Sequence record: MN850617.1
Length of the DNA stretch: 42,476 bases
Reading direction: 5' to 3' (one strand)
Source: Escherichia phage forsur
The number at the start of each line of letters is the position of its first letter. Within the stretch, counting starts at the first letter, position 1. Below, piece by piece: positions 34,558 through 42,476 of the stretch. Position numbers and translations under genes: made by a program. The notes below the pieces were generated by a model. The model did no database searches. It was not told the origin of the DNA and saw nothing but the letters and a program-made list of their open reading frames with translations.

Positions 34558-35823
34558 GTGCTTGACAAGCTGTTGTTAACGGTGATGCGCGAGCGCGGGA
34601 AGTTCAACTCCCTGCGACACGCCATCCCGGAAGATACGATGAGCCAGACCACGAGCTATATGCTCAAGGCTTACGGCTCATACTTTGATGCGTTCCCGGA
34701 CAGTGACTACATTGACATTGACACGCTGGGTACGCACGTTCGTTTAAAGACAGGCAGCACGCCTGAACAGATGGCAGCCTTTGATTCGTTGTGCTCGCAG
34801 CTTCGAGAGTACAAGCCAACGAAGGAACAGAAGGAAGGTGTGCTTGACCAGCTCGTCGAGTTGGATACCGCTGGCCGTGCTAACCTGCTAATGCAGAGGT
34901 ACGACAATGGTGAGGAACTGGATATTATCTATGAGCTGGGCCGTCTTGCTGAGGGCGCACGTCGCAGCCGGGGGCAGTCATCTGTCACTGATTACGTGGA
35001 CGATGATGTGGTTGATATTCTCAACCGGACGGATGATAATCACGGCCTCAAGTTCGGTCTGCTCTGCTTGCAAGACAGCGTTCGCGTACTTCTACCCGGC
35101 GACTCCGTTGCCATCGGTGCTCGACCTGACAGCGGAAAGACTTCCTTCATCGCGTTTAACCTTACGCGAATGGCGGCGACAGCAGCGAAGCTCTATCCGG
35201 GCAGGCCAATCCTCTGGTTCAACAACGAGGGGCAGGGCATCAACATCATCCCGCGCATCTACCAAGCGGCGCTCAACTGCACGCTCCCAGAACTGAAAGA
35301 ACTGGGAGAGGACAGGGCTAAGCTGCACGCTGCGTATGCCAAAGCGCTGGGTGCGCCAGCCAACATCATTCGTGTGAAGGATATGCACGGCGCATCGCTG
35401 GCGAAAGCTGAGCAGGTTATCGAAGCGATGAACCCATGCGTTGTGGTGTGGGATATGCTGGCGAACTTCAAGCTGTCTGTCTCCGATGCCAACAGCAACA
35501 AGGCGTCGCAGGTTGAGCAGCTATGGCAGGAGGTACGTGAGCTGGCTGTGCGCCATGACTTCGTATCAATGGCCACGGTGCAGGTATCAGCCGATGGCAA
35601 GGATGATATGTTCCCTGCGCTGGATGCACTCAAGGATTCCAAGACTGGTATCCAAGGTGCGACTGATGTTATCGTCATGCTCGGCAGCGTGGATGACCCA
35701 TCGCTGGCAGCACGGCGCGGCGTCAGCACCCCAAAGAACAAACGCCAGATTGCTGGGCGTCCATCCAACGTGCGGTCACAGGTTCACTTCTTTGCTGACC
35801 GCTGCCAATTCGAGGATATGTAA
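34558..35823 (+). CDS. DnaB-like replicative DNA helicase (421 aa)
   Basis: GTG start with AGGAG 5 nt upstream. Walker A GARPDSGKTSF, Walker B-like VVVWDML, RecA-fold C-terminal region. Confidence 0.85.
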   Translation: MLDKLLLTVMRERGKFNSLRHAIPEDTMSQTTSYMLKAYGSYFDAFPDSDYIDIDTLGTHVRLKTGSTPEQMAAFDSLCSQLREYKPTKEQKEGVLDQLVELDTAGRANLLMQRYDNGEELDIIYELGRLAEGARRSRGQSSVTDYVDDDVVDILNRTDDNHGLKFGLLCLQDSVRVLLPGDSVAIGARPDSGKTSFIAFNLTRMAATAAKLYPGRPILWFNNEGQGINIIPRIYQAALNCTLPELKELGEDRAKLHAAYAKALGAPANIIRVKDMHGASLAKAEQVIEAMNPCVVVWDMLANFKLSVSDANSNKASQVEQLWQEVRELAVRHDFVSMATVQVSADGKDDMFPALDALKDSKTGIQGATDVIVMLGSVDDPSLAARRGVSTPKNKRQIAGRPSNVRSQVHFFADRCQFEDM

Positions 35824-36176
35824 TGAGCGTGATTAAGGTAGGCGACCGAGTTCGTAACTGTGACACCAAGAGCGTACACTATGGCGCGACTGGTACTGTG
35901 GTTGATATCGACAGCAAGTGTATCAGCATCAAGCGCGACGATGGCTCTCGCGGTTCCGGTATCTATGGCTCGTGGACTGCGCGGCCTGAGTGCTGGGAGC
36001 TGCTGGTTGAGGTAGCCGAGGTGCCGGAGCCGACGACCACTGACGAGGACTGGAGCTACGCTGAGGCTGAGCGTCTGTATCAGGCAGCGTGTGATGCGAT
36101 GGCCAAGTACAATCAGTACGTTGAGCGTAAGCCAACGACCAGCTACCTGCCCGGTAGCAAGCCGAGTAAGTGGTGA
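35823..36176 (+). CDS. hypothetical protein (117 aa)
   Basis: ATGTAATG-type coupling. The N-terminal KVGDRV..GTVVDI segment is SH3/KOW-like. Confidence 0.65.
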   Translation: MSVIKVGDRVRNCDTKSVHYGATGTVVDIDSKCISIKRDDGSRGSGIYGSWTARPECWELLVEVAEVPEPTTTDEDWSYAEAERLYQAACDAMAKYNQYVERKPTTSYLPGSKPSKW

Positions 36177-36340
36177 AGGGGCGCAGCTATCGCCGTTGCT
36201 CTTGCGGCGGCTGCCTGCTGGTTGAGCAGGTCAAGGGCAAAGCCACTGGCAAACCGCTGGTGATTTACGAGTGTGAAAAGTGTGGAGCTAAGCAGTATGG
36301 AAGACAAGGTGTATCGAGCAGCACCCTTAACCCAGCGTGA
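36173..36340 (+). CDS. possible zinc-ribbon protein (55 aa)
   Basis: GTG in a GTGA overlap. CSCGGC..(x20)..CEKCG four-Cys pattern. Below the track cutoff. Overlaps the next ORF by 44 nt. Confidence 0.35.
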   Translation: MKGRSYRRCSCGGCLLVEQVKGKATGKPLVIYECEKCGAKQYGRQGVSSSTLNPA

Positions 36341-36488
36341 ACAAGACACCATCCGGGCGCAGTACCGGAAGGGTGATGCGTTCCGTGGGGAAGAAGCATT
36401 GGGTGAGCGCTACAATGTGGCACCCGAAGATATCGTGGCTGTGGTTAACTTCACCTACCGTAAGGGGAAACAGAAGCATGATAAGTAA
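36297..36488 (+). CDS. hypothetical protein (63 aa)
   Basis: Start trimmed to ATG 36297 (GGAG about 10 nt upstream). Confidence 0.5.
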   Translation: MEDKVYRAAPLTQREQDTIRAQYRKGDAFRGEEALGERYNVAPEDIVAVVNFTYRKGKQKHDK

Positions 36489-37161
36489 TGCCGAAGCTAA
36501 GCGCGTGTGGGCAGAAGACATCTGCCGTCTGCTGCAATCCGAAGAACTGAACTTCGTGGTTGCCGGGGGAGGGGCAAGGGATACCGCGTTGGGTGTTGAG
36601 CCGAAGGACTACGACATTGTGGTCTTTGGTTGGGGTGGTGATGTGAGCCGTGTGGCTGGCCGACTGGACTGGCTGGACTCCAGACTGGAGGACTATGCCA
36701 AGCAGCACGAGCTGTCGTATGAATACATGCCGAGCTATCACGATGCAGCAGAGGGTGGCGACTTCGGCTCCCGGCTGTGGGGTGTGTATAAGATTGGCCC
36801 GGTCGATGTGATTATCAGTAAGTGTGGGTGCTGGTCACAGGTACTGAACGAGTTCGACTTCAACCTGAACCAGTTCTACTTCCCGTCCAGTATCCCGCGT
36901 TACTCCGGCCAGTACAGCCGTGACCCCGGCGAGTTCATGGCGTATCCGTATGAGCCGAACCTCACTGCCGAAGATGTGCAGTGGTTCCCGGCGCTGGCCA
37001 GCCTGGTAGAAAGCTATGATGACCTGCTGACTCTCCGTGTCTGCCGACCGGATGCCAGCCTGAGTCGTGTGGCTTACATGCTGGAGAAGCACGAGAAGTA
37101 TCTGCCAGCCATTGAAGCATACGTTAATCGTATGCCCGACCACTTAGGTGGCAAAGCATAG
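36478..37161 (+). CDS. Pol-beta-superfamily nucleotidyltransferase, CCA-adding/poly(A)-polymerase head-domain-like (227 aa)
   Basis: Start trimmed to ATG 36478. VAGGGARDTALGVEPKDYDIVV matches the GGxxRDxxLGxxxxDxD signature. Confidence 0.65.
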   Translation: MISNAEAKRVWAEDICRLLQSEELNFVVAGGGARDTALGVEPKDYDIVVFGWGGDVSRVAGRLDWLDSRLEDYAKQHELSYEYMPSYHDAAEGGDFGSRLWGVYKIGPVDVIISKCGCWSQVLNEFDFNLNQFYFPSSIPRYSGQYSRDPGEFMAYPYEPNLTAEDVQWFPALASLVESYDDLLTLRVCRPDASLSRVAYMLEKHEKYLPAIEAYVNRMPDHLGGKA

Positions 37162-37171
37162 CGGGGGATTG

Positions 37172-39637
37172 ATGGCTATTCGAGCACAGATTATCGACGT
37201 TGAAACTGAGAACCATGAGTGGTATGGGGAGCTGGCATCACCTCGCTGCCCTGACAACTACGTGGTGATGCAGGGACAGCGCGACTGTGTGCTGACCAAG
37301 GATGGCTGGGAGTTCTACAAGCGTGAGGAATATCGGTACGCATCCCGTGAGGATTGGCTGGCGAACAAGAGCCTGCACCTCCACCCGGATACGAACATAC
37401 TGGTTGCACACAACGCGCCGTATGAACTGAGCTGGTGGTTCGAGCATTACGGTGACGAGTTCAAGGCATTCCTCTTACGAGGTGGCCGCGTATTCTGTAC
37501 CGCTTATGCTGAGTATCTGCTGACACACCAGCAATCCCAGTACCCATCCTTGAACGAGACAGCACCGAAGTATGGTGGTACTCACAAGGTGGATGCAGTC
37601 AAGGCAATGTGGGAGTCAGGTTATCTGACCAGCCAGATTGACGCTGAGCTGCTGAGCGAGTATCTGTCCGGGCCGTCCGGCGATATCGAGAACACGACCA
37701 AGCTGTTCGTTGGTCAGTGGGCAGAGCTGACGAAGCAGGGCATGTTGCAGATGGCACTGACCCGGTTCGAAGGTATGCTCATGTGGGCGTACATGATGCA
37801 CTCCGGTCTGCACGTTGACCGTGAGGTAGCAGAGCGTAACCGCCGTGAGTTGCAGGATTCAATCAGTGGGTTAACCGAGACACTGATGGGCTACCTGCCT
37901 GCCGACATGCCGAGTGAAGCGCGTGAGCAATTCAAGTTCACGTCTGCATATCACATGAGCGCGTTCGTGTTCGGCGGCGTGATGAAGTACAAGGCGCGGG
38001 TCGAGCGCCGGGATGCCGATGGCAATCTCATTTACGTGAAGGTGGATGCACCACTGTTCAAGCGTGGCAAGGACAAGTGGCTCAAGCATACCAGCGAGTG
38101 CGTGTGGGATGATGAGACTGGGTTGTGGTATGACCCGGTTGAGAAGGTACACCAGACTATCTACTCCAGCGGCAAGCACAAAGGCGAGCCGAAGTTTGAG
38201 AAGCTGGCGACCGATGAGGTGGACACTAAGTGGGGTGAGGTACTGTTCCGGCTGCCCGGTCTGCTGCGTGTGCAGGACAGACGGGCGCGGGAGATTGCCG
38301 ACAACCTTGAGTGGGAAGACCCGAAGCGTCCGGGTGAATATCTCCGGCGCACTGGTGACTGGGTAGGTAAGCGCAAGCTGGCTGACGGTTCTCCTGTATT
38401 CAGTACGGCGGGTGAGGTGCTGGACATTCTGGCAGCTCGTAAGATTCCCGGCGTCGTGGAGATTGCTGACCGGGCCAAGGCGCAGAAAGACCTAGGCACC
38501 TACTACCTCAGCGAGACGTTTGATGAGGATGGCAACGTGACTGGCCAGTCGGGGATGATGCAGTTCATCCAGCCGGACAGTATCGTACACCACACCATCA
38601 ACATGACCGCGACTGAGACGACACGCTTGTCGTCGCAGCGACCGAACAGCCAGAACCTGCCGCGTAAAGGTACGAGTAAAGTTAAGCAGATGTTCACCTC
38701 CCGCTTTGGCGAAGGTGGCCGCATCGTTGAGGCTGACTACTCGGCACTGGAAGTGGTGGGGTTGGCCGGGTTCAGTAAGGACAAGAACCTGATTCGTGCA
38801 TTGCTCGATGGTATCGACATGCACTGTATGCGATTGTCTGCTCAACTCAATGAGCCATACGAGGACGTGCTTAAGAAGTGCAAGGATGAGTCCCATCCTG
38901 ACCATGCACGATACAGTCAGATGCGTACTGACATCAAGCCCAAGGCGTTCTCCTATCAGTATGGTGCAACAGCGCGGGGCATTGCCTACTCGACTGGTTG
39001 CTCGGAGGAAGAAGCACAGGCGTTCATCGACAACGAGAAGGGTCTGTTCCCGGAAGTTGAAGAATGGTTCGACGCTGTAATCTTCCCCGCCGTTGAGCGT
39101 AGTGGACAGAGCAACGTGTTCAAGGAACAAGATGAGAACGGACGGTGGCAGGTGTATCGCCGTGGTCACTTCCGCTCGCCGGGTGGAACTTGTTATTCAT
39201 TCCGTCAGTACGAGAAATGGAACAAGGCGGCGCGTGCTTATCTGATGGAATACAAACCAACCCAAATGCGTAACTATCCTATTCAGGGTGAGACAGCGTT
39301 TTGGGTACAGGGAATTGGTGGGCTGCTGTTCCGCTGGCTGCTGGCCAATGACTTCTTTGGTGGGCGTGTGGTTCCCATCAACCAAGTGCATGACGCATTC
39401 TATTTCGACGTGGCACCTGACTGCCCTCACGAGTTCTTCGTTGGACTCAAGGCAATCATGGAATCCATACCGGAATACTACAACCACATCTGGCCTGAAT
39501 ATAACCTGACAGTTCCGTTTCCGGCAGAGGTAGAAGCTGGGCCAAGCATGTACGAAAAGCATCACGTAGAGACGACAGCCGAAGAAGTGCTGGAGTTCAA
39601 ACGTAACTTCCTGACGAGTAAGGGTATTAGCATATGA
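37172..39637 (+). CDS. family-A DNA polymerase with 3'-5' exonuclease domain (821 aa)
   Basis: Start trimmed to ATG 37172 (GGGGGA upstream). Exo I IIDVETEN, motif A EADYSALEVV, motif B RTDIKPKAFSYQYG, motif C NQVHDAF. Confidence 0.93.
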   Translation: MAIRAQIIDVETENHEWYGELASPRCPDNYVVMQGQRDCVLTKDGWEFYKREEYRYASREDWLANKSLHLHPDTNILVAHNAPYELSWWFEHYGDEFKAFLLRGGRVFCTAYAEYLLTHQQSQYPSLNETAPKYGGTHKVDAVKAMWESGYLTSQIDAELLSEYLSGPSGDIENTTKLFVGQWAELTKQGMLQMALTRFEGMLMWAYMMHSGLHVDREVAERNRRELQDSISGLTETLMGYLPADMPSEAREQFKFTSAYHMSAFVFGGVMKYKARVERRDADGNLIYVKVDAPLFKRGKDKWLKHTSECVWDDETGLWYDPVEKVHQTIYSSGKHKGEPKFEKLATDEVDTKWGEVLFRLPGLLRVQDRRAREIADNLEWEDPKRPGEYLRRTGDWVGKRKLADGSPVFSTAGEVLDILAARKIPGVVEIADRAKAQKDLGTYYLSETFDEDGNVTGQSGMMQFIQPDSIVHHTINMTATETTRLSSQRPNSQNLPRKGTSKVKQMFTSRFGEGGRIVEADYSALEVVGLAGFSKDKNLIRALLDGIDMHCMRLSAQLNEPYEDVLKKCKDESHPDHARYSQMRTDIKPKAFSYQYGATARGIAYSTGCSEEEAQAFIDNEKGLFPEVEEWFDAVIFPAVERSGQSNVFKEQDENGRWQVYRRGHFRSPGGTCYSFRQYEKWNKAARAYLMEYKPTQMRNYPIQGETAFWVQGIGGLLFRWLLANDFFGGRVVPINQVHDAFYFDVAPDCPHEFFVGLKAIMESIPEYYNHIWPEYNLTVPFPAEVEAGPSMYEKHHVETTAEEVLEFKRNFLTSKGISI

Positions 39638-41839: not shown

Positions 41840-42476
41840 TGACGAAGTTAAGTAACGCACAGCTCAAGGCAGATATCGCTGAGGGTCTTGGCACCACTGA
41901 GATTGCTGAGAAGCATGACATGACCACGGGTGCCATTCGATACCGGAAGCGCCAGCTTGCCAAGAGCGGCTGGAGTCCTGAGCACGACATGACCAAGGAA
42001 GTGCCGGAGCCGTATGCGGTTAAGGGTACGTCCACGCTGTATGATAAGGACGGCAACGTGGTCATGCAGTGGGTGAAGACTGCGCTCGACCGTGAGCAGG
42101 AGCTGGCCCTGCTGCAAGAGGCAGTGGATGCAATCAGCGAAACCATTACCCCGGAAGTGGCCCGGCCATTCAGCGGTGGCCCGGCACCTGCTGAGCTGCT
42201 GAACCTGTTCATCCTCACTGACTACCACCTCGGTATGCTGGCGTGGTCAGAGGAAACTGGTGATGACTGGGATATGAAGATTGCCGAAGACCTGCTGGTC
42301 AAGTGGTTCGCGGCAGCCATTGCCAGTGCGCCACCAGCACAGGTTGCTATCTTCGGACAGCTCGGTGACTTCCTACACTGGGATGGGTTAGATGCAGTGA
42401 CGCCATCGAGTGGGCATGTGCTGGATGCTGACACGCGATTCCAGAAGCTGGTGCGTGTGGCTATCCGGGCGCAGCG
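41839..42476 (+). CDS. N-terminal part of the HTH-containing calcineurin-like metallophosphoesterase (continues at 2..487; about 374 aa in total)
   Basis: AAGGGG 5 nt upstream of ATG 41839 (alternative ATG 41836). N-terminal HTH-like GLGTTEIAEKHDMTTGAIRYRKRQL, then LTDYHLG (DxH) and GQLGDFLHWD (GD) motifs. No stop before the window end. Confidence 0.8.
   Translation, partial: MTKLSNAQLKADIAEGLGTTEIAEKHDMTTGAIRYRKRQLAKSGWSPEHDMTKEVPEPYAVKGTSTLYDKDGNVVMQWVKTALDREQELALLQEAVDAISETITPEVARPFSGGPAPAELLNLFILTDYHLGMLAWSEETGDDWDMKIAEDLLVKWFAAAIASAPPAQVAIFGQLGDFLHWDGLDAVTPSSGHVLDADTRFQKLVRVAIRAQ

Follow-up and report, generated by a model that had tools for sequence, protein, structure and literature searches.

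In the replication region of Escherichia phage forsur (sequence record MN850617.1) lies a gene for a small predicted nucleotidyltransferase (NTase), which we examined within the whole 42,476-nucleotide (nt) stretch of the record, hereafter the window. The gene occupies positions 36478-37161, stop codon included, and encodes 227 amino acids (aa); all genes of the window, and every feature given below, are on one strand, the plus strand. A Shine-Dalgarno-like AAGGGG (36462-36467), read from the sequence, stands 10 nt 5′ of the ATG. A longer open reading frame (ORF) opens with a GTG at 36337, and we ruled it out as the NTase gene: this start appears unused because relatives are called at the position equivalent to the ATG, mostly as 227-aa proteins.

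The NTase gene is flanked by genes for a DnaB-like helicase (34558-35823) and a family-A DNA polymerase (about 37172-39637), within the local order primase, helicase, 117-aa protein, 71-aa protein, NTase, DNA polymerase, PHROG 862 protein, 5′-3′ exonuclease and endonuclease VII. Its start overlaps the 3′ end of the 71-aa ORF by 11 nt, and the polymerase gene begins approximately 10 nt past its stop codon. The ratios of nonsynonymous to synonymous substitution rates (dN/dS) against two relatives are 0.11 and 0.13, indicating purifying selection. An earlier annotation made from the letters of this DNA without database searches (the sequence-only reading) had described a minimal CCA-adding or poly(A)-polymerase-like enzyme, encoded in the replication module of a phage with no tRNA genes. 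The location between helicase and DNA polymerase agrees with that description, and ARAGORN likewise found no tRNA genes in the window.

The window is a whole genome of about 42.5 kb. It is circularly permuted, as seen from a 'DNA repair exonuclease' gene (phrog_704) that is split by the window ends (1-487 and about 41840-42476), with ORF 14-487 supplying the C-terminal 157 aa of its product. Identity across the window is approximately 98% to Escherichia phages glasur and usur and 83-93% to J8-65, RZ4, Kc261 and others. J8-65 and the 88%-identical LF82-23 are members of the genus Bonnellvirus (Autographiviridae), and the forsur window is a Bonnellvirus genome.

Searches with the single NTase sequence gave no significant match: Pfam PolyA_pol (PF01743) reached E = 0.052 (14.3 bits, below the cut-off of 23), NCBIfam reached 8e-4 while remaining far below its cut-off, and phmmer matches in the PDB were all above 0.8. 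Profiles were therefore needed. Residues 7-224 match the PHROG 1614 family, 'nucleotidyltransferase', at E = 7.7e-42, and gp17 of J8-65, which is 87% identical to the forsur protein, bears the same name in RefSeq. A profile of 75 homologs retrieved CCA-adding enzymes and the E. coli poly(A) polymerase (PAP) from the PDB at E = 7e-7 to 1e-5, and PolyA_pol is matched weakly by 62 of these 75 family members. We then compared a 224-sequence family alignment by hhalign with a class-II profile composed of E. coli Cca, PcnB and seven CCA enzymes from viral contigs of 137-287 kb. The two align with 96.6% probability (E = 5.4e-10) over 170 columns, running from motif A via motif B into the motif-D helix.

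An exhaustive hidden Markov model (HMM) search found 3,324 clusters (at 50% identity) with E ≤ 1e-3, 546 of them with E ≤ 1e-10. The top 150 matches are all 138-292 aa long, so the family consists of stand-alone small proteins. PADLOC defence models, those for MNT/MntA, CD-NTase and MenT/AbiEii included, gave no match at E ≤ 1 with the forsur NTase or seven diverse family members. By sequence comparison, the NTase is a stand-alone class-II-type (CCA/PAP) enzyme of the Pol-beta nucleotidyltransferase superfamily. The class-II head-domain signature and the minimal size named by the sequence-only reading are both borne out here, the profile and fold searches finding Pol-beta NTases and the other family members being similarly small. 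The PHROG 1614 family is itself already annotated as 'nucleotidyltransferase' or 'tRNA nucleotidyltransferase' and discussed in the literature, where homologs have been named putative tRNA nucleotidyltransferases or putative CCA-nucleotidyltransferase.

The predicted fold leads to the same enzymes. An AlphaFold2 model from the 75-sequence alignment (mean predicted local distance difference test score 87, predicted template modelling (TM) score 0.85) shows a Pol-beta head with a five-stranded mixed sheet and two helices, whose nearest solved folds are class-II heads. Foldseek places the same families closest, with MenT1 and ANT(2'')-Ia far down the list. Within a library of viral structures, the NTase matches best to small proteins from other Autographiviridae, which go by the names 'nucleotidyltransferase', 'poly A polymerase head domain protein', 'tRNA nucleotidyltransferase' and 'tRNA maturase'; the model of the LIMEzero protein superposes on the NTase with TM 0.73-0.82.

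We next considered which active-site features of class-II enzymes are retained. Motif A, at residues 28-49 of the ORF translation (VAGGGARDTALGVEPKDYDIVV, 36559-36624), carries a GG nucleotide-binding turn, R34/D35, K43 and the catalytic D44 and D46, and aligns with the GGxVRD...KDxD of E. coli CCA and PAP. G30, G31, R34, D44, D46 and R197 are invariant in the 224 homologs, and D35 is present in 222 of them. Retention of the catalytic DxD in homologs had been set beforehand as a check on the sequence-only reading, and it is kept in 224/224. The beta-strand PVDVII (residues 108-113, 36799-36816) bears D110, which we presume to be the third catalytic carboxylate from the Pol-beta hDh pattern and the class-II head architecture. 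This position is D in 219/224 homologs and E in two, and in the AlphaFold2 model it falls within predicted strand E109-114, beside strand E100-106; the assignment rests on this conservation and strand position, the placement of D110 by hhalign being imprecise. With its conserved active-site residues intact, the NTase is apparently catalytically competent.

Downstream of this catalytic core, the likeness becomes partial. Residues 126-133, FDFNLNQF (36853-36876), form a degenerate motif B, the counterpart of the class-II RRDLTINAL. Conservation is high at F126 (215/224), D127 (223), N129 (220), N131 (220) and Q132 (208). In the hhalign comparison, the family consensus FDfNINQF stands opposite RRD-tiNa, with the Asp and Asn retained and neither Arg present; the residues aligned to RRD are E125-F126-D127, of which the Asp alone is retained. 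G144 stands opposite the Gly of the motif-C region. Residues 186-204 (LRVCRPDASLSRVAYMLEK, 37033-37089) begin a long C-terminal helix (H195-218 in the AlphaFold2 model) that appears to be a remnant of the first neck helix and motif D. Here LRVCRP--DASLSRVAYM aligns with LRHVSPAFGEDPLRVLRV in the comparison with the class-II profile, placing R197 on the Arg and S194 on the Asp of 'EDPLR' (EDxxR) in E. coli CCA. The Glu position of EDxxR is variable in the family, S or T occupies position 194 in 154/224 (69%), and K204 is found in 177/224.

According to a review, class-II enzymes are built from a head, a neck, a body and a tail domain: the head bears three catalytic carboxylates, an Asp and an Arg of the neck template CTP and ATP, and binding of the acceptor and T-arm helices is the task of the body and tail. 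Of these parts, the NTase keeps the head and the first neck helix with R197, and lacks the RRD arginines, the templating Asp, the remaining neck, the body and the tail. The absence of the RRD, the templating Asp and the tRNA-binding body and tail indicates that it is not a canonical CCA-adding enzyme. We therefore do not retain the 'CCA-adding' label of the sequence-only reading: the NTase has neither body nor tail, E-F-D stands where RRD would be, and only the Arg of the templating Asp/Arg pair is kept.

The family is large and, in this analysis, found almost only in phage DNA. Searches by tblastn placed it in 160-201 phage records, nearly all from phages with genomes of about 40 kb that infect Pseudomonas, Vibrio, Escherichia, Klebsiella, Dickeya, Pectobacterium and other hosts. 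Across 43 IMG/VR loci and annotated genomes, seven or more distinct contexts are seen for the gene (flanked by helicase and polymerase, flanked by lysozyme and primase/helicase, directly past the polymerase, past the exonuclease, and at least three further arrangements), always within the DNA-metabolism cluster. Clustering of the neighbours at the 43 viral loci revealed no constant neighbouring gene family. The NTase gene thus behaves like a mobile accessory gene of the DNA-metabolism (middle) cluster of Autographiviridae, in agreement with the sporadic, host-associated distribution described by Evseev et al. No tRNA genes were found within 10 kb of the NTase in 40 loci, and maturation of phage tRNAs is ruled out as its role by their absence there and in the window.

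A search through 185,579 species, each represented by one genome, made with a single peptide pattern and not exhaustive, yielded three pattern-confirmed loci. Of these, two fall on short contigs for which IMG/VR also has entries, and the third is accompanied by a series of T7-like phage genes; we accordingly rejected bacterial, non-phage homologs, all three loci being phage-linked by IMG/VR listing or T7-like genes. In Pseudomonas fontis (NZ_JAMDGX010000046.1, 35549-47923), at least 12 kb of T7-like genes of Ghunavirus type are found inside a 120-kb contig of the bacterial assembly, which could reflect integration, a carrier state or an assembly chimera. Separately, Vibrio phage 1.262.O (MG592626.1, 26912-43568; genome 47.6 kb) encodes a distant family member with a strong match to PF26128, adjoined by a cluster for glutamine amidotransferases, a COOH-NH2 ligase and an R2K-type ATP-grasp protein. 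This cluster is reminiscent of DNA hypermodification loci.

Together, these features lead us to favour, tentatively and with less than even confidence, a role for the NTase as an accessory RNA 3′-end nucleotidyltransferase serving counter-defence or host manipulation. During infection, a ribonucleoside triphosphate would be bound between the head and the C-terminal R197 helix, and D44, D46 and D110 would carry out two-metal catalysis. One or a few nucleotides would thereby be added, template-free, to an RNA 3′-OH, the most plausible acceptors being host tRNA acceptor ends or another small RNA. Such an activity would contribute to counter-defence or host manipulation rather than to core replication. 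An RNA 3′ end is the likeliest acceptor because all characterized class-II relatives work on RNA 3′ ends and the Asp and Asn of motif B are kept. The base preference may not be for C or A, since Ser or Thr replaces the templating Asp.

A 2026 preprint reports that gp22 of Pseudomonas putida phage Emajogi, a nucleotidyltransferase, is cytotoxic at high induction; its gene is directly 5′ of the primase/helicase gene, and some of its homologs are annotated as Gad2 family. This is the arrangement seen in Ghunavirus and Pifdecavirus, and we equate Emajogi gp22 with the family by its description and by synteny in sister phages rather than by sequence. The cytotoxicity of this homolog fits an enzyme acting on a general cellular substrate.

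Several observations weigh against an RNA 3′-end role. The tRNA-binding domains of the cellular enzymes and the RRD arginines are absent, and Pol-beta-fold proteins of this size include small-molecule and protein nucleotidyltransferases; the Pfam family of aminoglycoside 2''-adenylyltransferases is matched weakly by 9 of 75 members. Phage tRNA genes, RNA ligase and 5′-kinase were not found alongside the NTase gene, and we found no experimental paper, biochemical or genetic, on the small family in the literature. Gad2, the only characterized relative outside the CCA/PAP enzymes, counters a DNA-targeting defence by an unknown mechanism. The NTase is also acidic, with an isoelectric point (pI) of 4.65 and a net charge of -14 (family median pI 4.8); this is weak evidence against RNA binding, as the head region of E. 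coli CCA itself has a pI of 5.3.

The relation to Gad2 raises the alternative that survives best, which we consider unlikely, if worth keeping in view: that the NTase neutralizes Gabija or a related OLD-family nuclease system sensing DNA ends, in a Gad2-like manner, by nucleotidylating its target. Gad2 is a 400-aa anti-Gabija protein of Bacillus phage SPbetaL7 and a nucleotidyltransferase by AlphaFold prediction, with anti-Gabija activity shown for Gad2 and a full-length homolog only. SPbetaL7 needs it against Gabija, and it is toxic on expression, like the Emajogi homolog. The two readings would overlap if Gad2 acts on an RNA end. T7-like phages have linear genomes and a RecBCD inhibitor, which counts in favour of this alternative, and Gabija reportedly acts on linear phage DNA ends once RecBCD is blocked.

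For the forsur protein itself, the sequence link to Gad2 is weak. PF26128, named 'Gad2', matches approximately 27 of 86 family members in precomputed Pfam tables, and a distant member, Vibrio phage protein P0086, matches it strongly (E ≤ 1e-5). We compared the family with Gad2 (OQ921347.1, 109563-110765) and 120 of its homologs. Alignment by hhalign reached 51% probability (E = 1.5e-4) over 137 columns that include the GG, DxD and FDF motifs and the S-x-x-R-x-x-K helix, and larger alignments reached 84.7% over 36 columns of motif A only. In the C-terminal helix, the pattern S-x-x-R-x-x-K-[YM]-x-x-K aligns to S148/R151/K154/K158 of Gad2. However, the forsur NTase has no PF26128 match on record, a relative 69% identical to it is listed as 'faint' only, and an HMM of the Gad2 N-domain does not reach it at E ≤ 10. 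BLASTP of the NTase against Gad2 is not significant (E = 0.64), and the family and Gad2 score 13-22 bits in cross-HMM comparisons. The family HMM favours E. coli CCA (E = 3.5e-4) slightly over Gad2 (E = 2.4e-3). In profile comparison, the family is much nearer to class-II enzymes, which it matches with the 96.6% probability given above, than to Gad2, and Gad2 itself reaches 2.5% against the class-II profile. Gad2 further lacks equivalents of R34/D35, D110 (Q88 there) and N131, and ends in a further, conserved C-terminal region of roughly 235 aa with no counterpart in the NTase. Gad2 homologs are 355-474 aa long with invariant residues up to position 389, and the NTase aligns to positions 14-163 of Gad2 only. 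A review of February 2026 still gives the mechanism of Gad2 as unknown.

On sequence, Gad2 and the NTase family are probably both divergent offshoots of the class-II head, for which a common function is possible. In Gad2 homologs themselves, the third-carboxylate position holds an invariant Gln (Q88). A His (H91) after it is invariant too, as is a second Asp (D115) past the FDF motif. These residues suggest that Gad2 may not share the catalytic geometry of classical class-II enzymes.

Could the acceptor be something other than a nucleic acid? The NTase might nucleotidylylate a host or defence protein, as do MntA, GlnE and DrrA, or a cationic small molecule, as do ANT(2'')-Ia and Lnu. Its size and acidity resemble those of small-molecule NTases, it has no RNA-binding domain, and ANT(2'')-Ia and MenT1 are among its Foldseek matches. 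The weak Aminoglyc_resit matches in 9/75 members reach 21.3 bits in one of them (P0129), against a cut-off of 21. These ANT matches are nevertheless marginal, sequence and fold are clearly nearest to the RNA-specific class-II enzymes, the Asp and Asn residues of motif B are kept, and PADLOC found no match to the MNT, CD-NTase or toxin NTase families. We consider this alternative rather improbable.

A complete repair of CCA ends, in which C74-C75-A76 would be rebuilt on host tRNAs trimmed by defence nucleases, is improbable to a slightly greater degree. It was the leading idea of the sequence-only reading, whose proposed roles (tRNA 3′-end repair, RNA tailing or a nucleotide signal) are guesses. 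It draws on the class-II ancestry, on the retained motif-D Arg and on the naming of homologs in the literature as putative tRNA nucleotidyltransferases. The paper on Cas12a3 furthermore describes cleavage of the tRNA CCA tail as a defence, with viral countermeasures called unknown by its authors. The body and tail are absent from the NTase, however, the templating Asp is not conserved and the RRD is lost. The host also has its own CCA-adding enzyme with a healing HD domain, which counts against this alternative. We give little credence to the view that the NTase might be a minimal, self-sufficient tRNA 3′-tail repair enzyme answering CCA-clipping defences such as Cas12a3.

A second gene bears on tail repair. 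At 581-1177, forsur encodes a HAD phosphatase (PF25109, E = 2.9e-15; phrog_415, E = 6.5e-57), whose product is named 'polynucleotide kinase' in relatives although it has the HAD phosphatase domain of PNKP only, without the kinase domain. Judging from its domain content, this product is likely a stand-alone polynucleotide 3′-phosphatase misnamed in public records. The closely related LF82-23 genome has neither a kinase nor a ligase among its annotated genes. A phosphatase without kinase or ligase suits healing of 3′ ends and not repair of anticodon breaks, and to this extent favours CCA repair. Against it, the HAD_PNKP phosphatase occurs alongside the NTase in 7 of 43 loci, all from three lineages (Bonnellvirus, Limezerovirus and PP99), and is therefore not a general partner of the NTase. 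We rejected a 3′-phosphatase and NTase pair that would 'heal and re-tail' as the general mechanism and kept it as a lineage-specific possibility. In a tail-repair scheme for Bonnellvirus and Limezerovirus, which we hold to be as improbable as tail repair itself, the PNKP-type 3′-phosphatase would heal the end first.

A role linked to DNA, by addition of nucleotides onto DNA 3′ ends or primers or by a part in DNA modification, is very improbable: the gene is always among replication genes, loss of the RRD arginines could relax sugar discrimination, and others have speculated on DNA modification for the replication-module NTase of an unrelated phage group, but its position in the module is not fixed and many related phages are without it, so that it is not a core replication component, no class-II enzyme acting on DNA is described in the review, and D127, N129 and N131 of motif B are strictly conserved.

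The 71-aa protein encoded immediately 5′ of the NTase (36273-36488; phrog_31596, E = 5e-36) contains a segment, LTQREQDTIRAQY...ALGERYNVAPEDIVAVV, that looks like a sigma-70 region-4 or LuxR-type helix-turn-helix; its gene is found within two genes 5′ of the NTase only in Bonnellvirus and LIMEzero-type loci. In the gap between the genes for the 117-aa and 71-aa proteins, a 56-aa ORF (36170-36340) encodes two Cys pairs (CSCGGC ... CEKC) in a zinc-ribbon-like arrangement. Its conservation amounts to 80-84% aa identity in J8-65, which leaves it unannotated, and in an IMG/VR relative. In the two LIMEzero-type loci, with the ORF a short way 5′ of the NTase, identity is 44-52%; LF82-23 gave no match. 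Beside the phosphatase gene, the ORF at 1101-1706 encodes a protein with a dATP/dGTP diphosphohydrolase N-terminal domain (PF18909, E = 4.4e-34). Its true start is probably later than listed, because the listed ORF overlaps that of the phosphatase by 77 nt. The label 'endolysin; inhibits RNA polymerase', borne by several related PHROGs, seems to be a case of annotation drift.

The annotation of the forsur protein as an NTase is not new; its interest is in the biochemistry of a known phage NTase family. The family is abundant, with at least 546 clusters (50% identity, E ≤ 1e-10), and hundreds of T7-like phages carry a member, candidates for therapy and biocontrol among them. As the NTase is a naturally minimized form of a well-studied, RNA-polymerase-like enzyme, its chemistry would show what a head and one neck helix can achieve by themselves. 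An action on tRNA or other RNA ends, or a mechanism shared with Gad2, would close a gap in phage counter-defence, namely how cleavage of the CCA tail is countered or how Gad2 works. Should bona fide Gad2 have a tail-repair chemistry in common with the NTase, the way in which Gad2 overcomes Gabija would also come to light. If its tailing is merely redundant, the gene is an ordinary accessory one.

Among known systems, the closest are the other members of PHROG 1614, which include LIMEzero gp22, J8-65 gp17, Pectobacterium phage PP47 gp28 and proteins of LKD16, Friunavirus and Ghunavirus. Within this family, proteins of the Bonnellvirus clade exceed the median length of 189 aa, at 227 aa, with an insertion around residues 183-185 and a longer C-terminus, and the position of the gene varies between lineages. 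With class-II tRNA nucleotidyltransferases and bacterial poly(A) polymerase I (E. coli Cca and PcnB; PDB 3aql, 4wby, 3h37 and 1miv), the NTase shares the GGxxRD...KDxD of motif A, an acidic residue, the third, on the adjacent strand, the motif-B core D-F-x-x-N and a following helix with an invariant Arg aligned to that of EDxxR. In contrast to these enzymes, which are approximately 400-470 aa long, it has 227 aa, retains the first neck helix only, has no body or tail, and shows E-F-D in place of RRD and Ser in place of the templating Asp. A bacterial counterpart is NP_344798.1 of Streptococcus pneumoniae (PDB 2la3), a stand-alone protein with the head domain of a CCA-adding enzyme, which is nonetheless structurally farther from the NTase than are the head domains of full-length PAP and CCA.

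The MenT/AbiEii proteins are likewise stand-alone Pol-beta-fold enzymes of small size, adding nucleotides to the acceptor ends of tRNAs with no body or tail. They are toxic on expression, and MenT1 is among the fold matches of the NTase. They differ in belonging to another NTase clade, with no PADLOC or Pfam match from the NTase family, and in being bacterial toxins with cognate antitoxins, whereas we found no antitoxin-like partner at the NTase loci. Gad2, finally, is alike in being a phage-encoded predicted NTase with a GG...DxD motif, 'FDF' in place of 'RDF', and a helix of the pattern S-x-x-R-x-x-K-[YM]-x-x-K.

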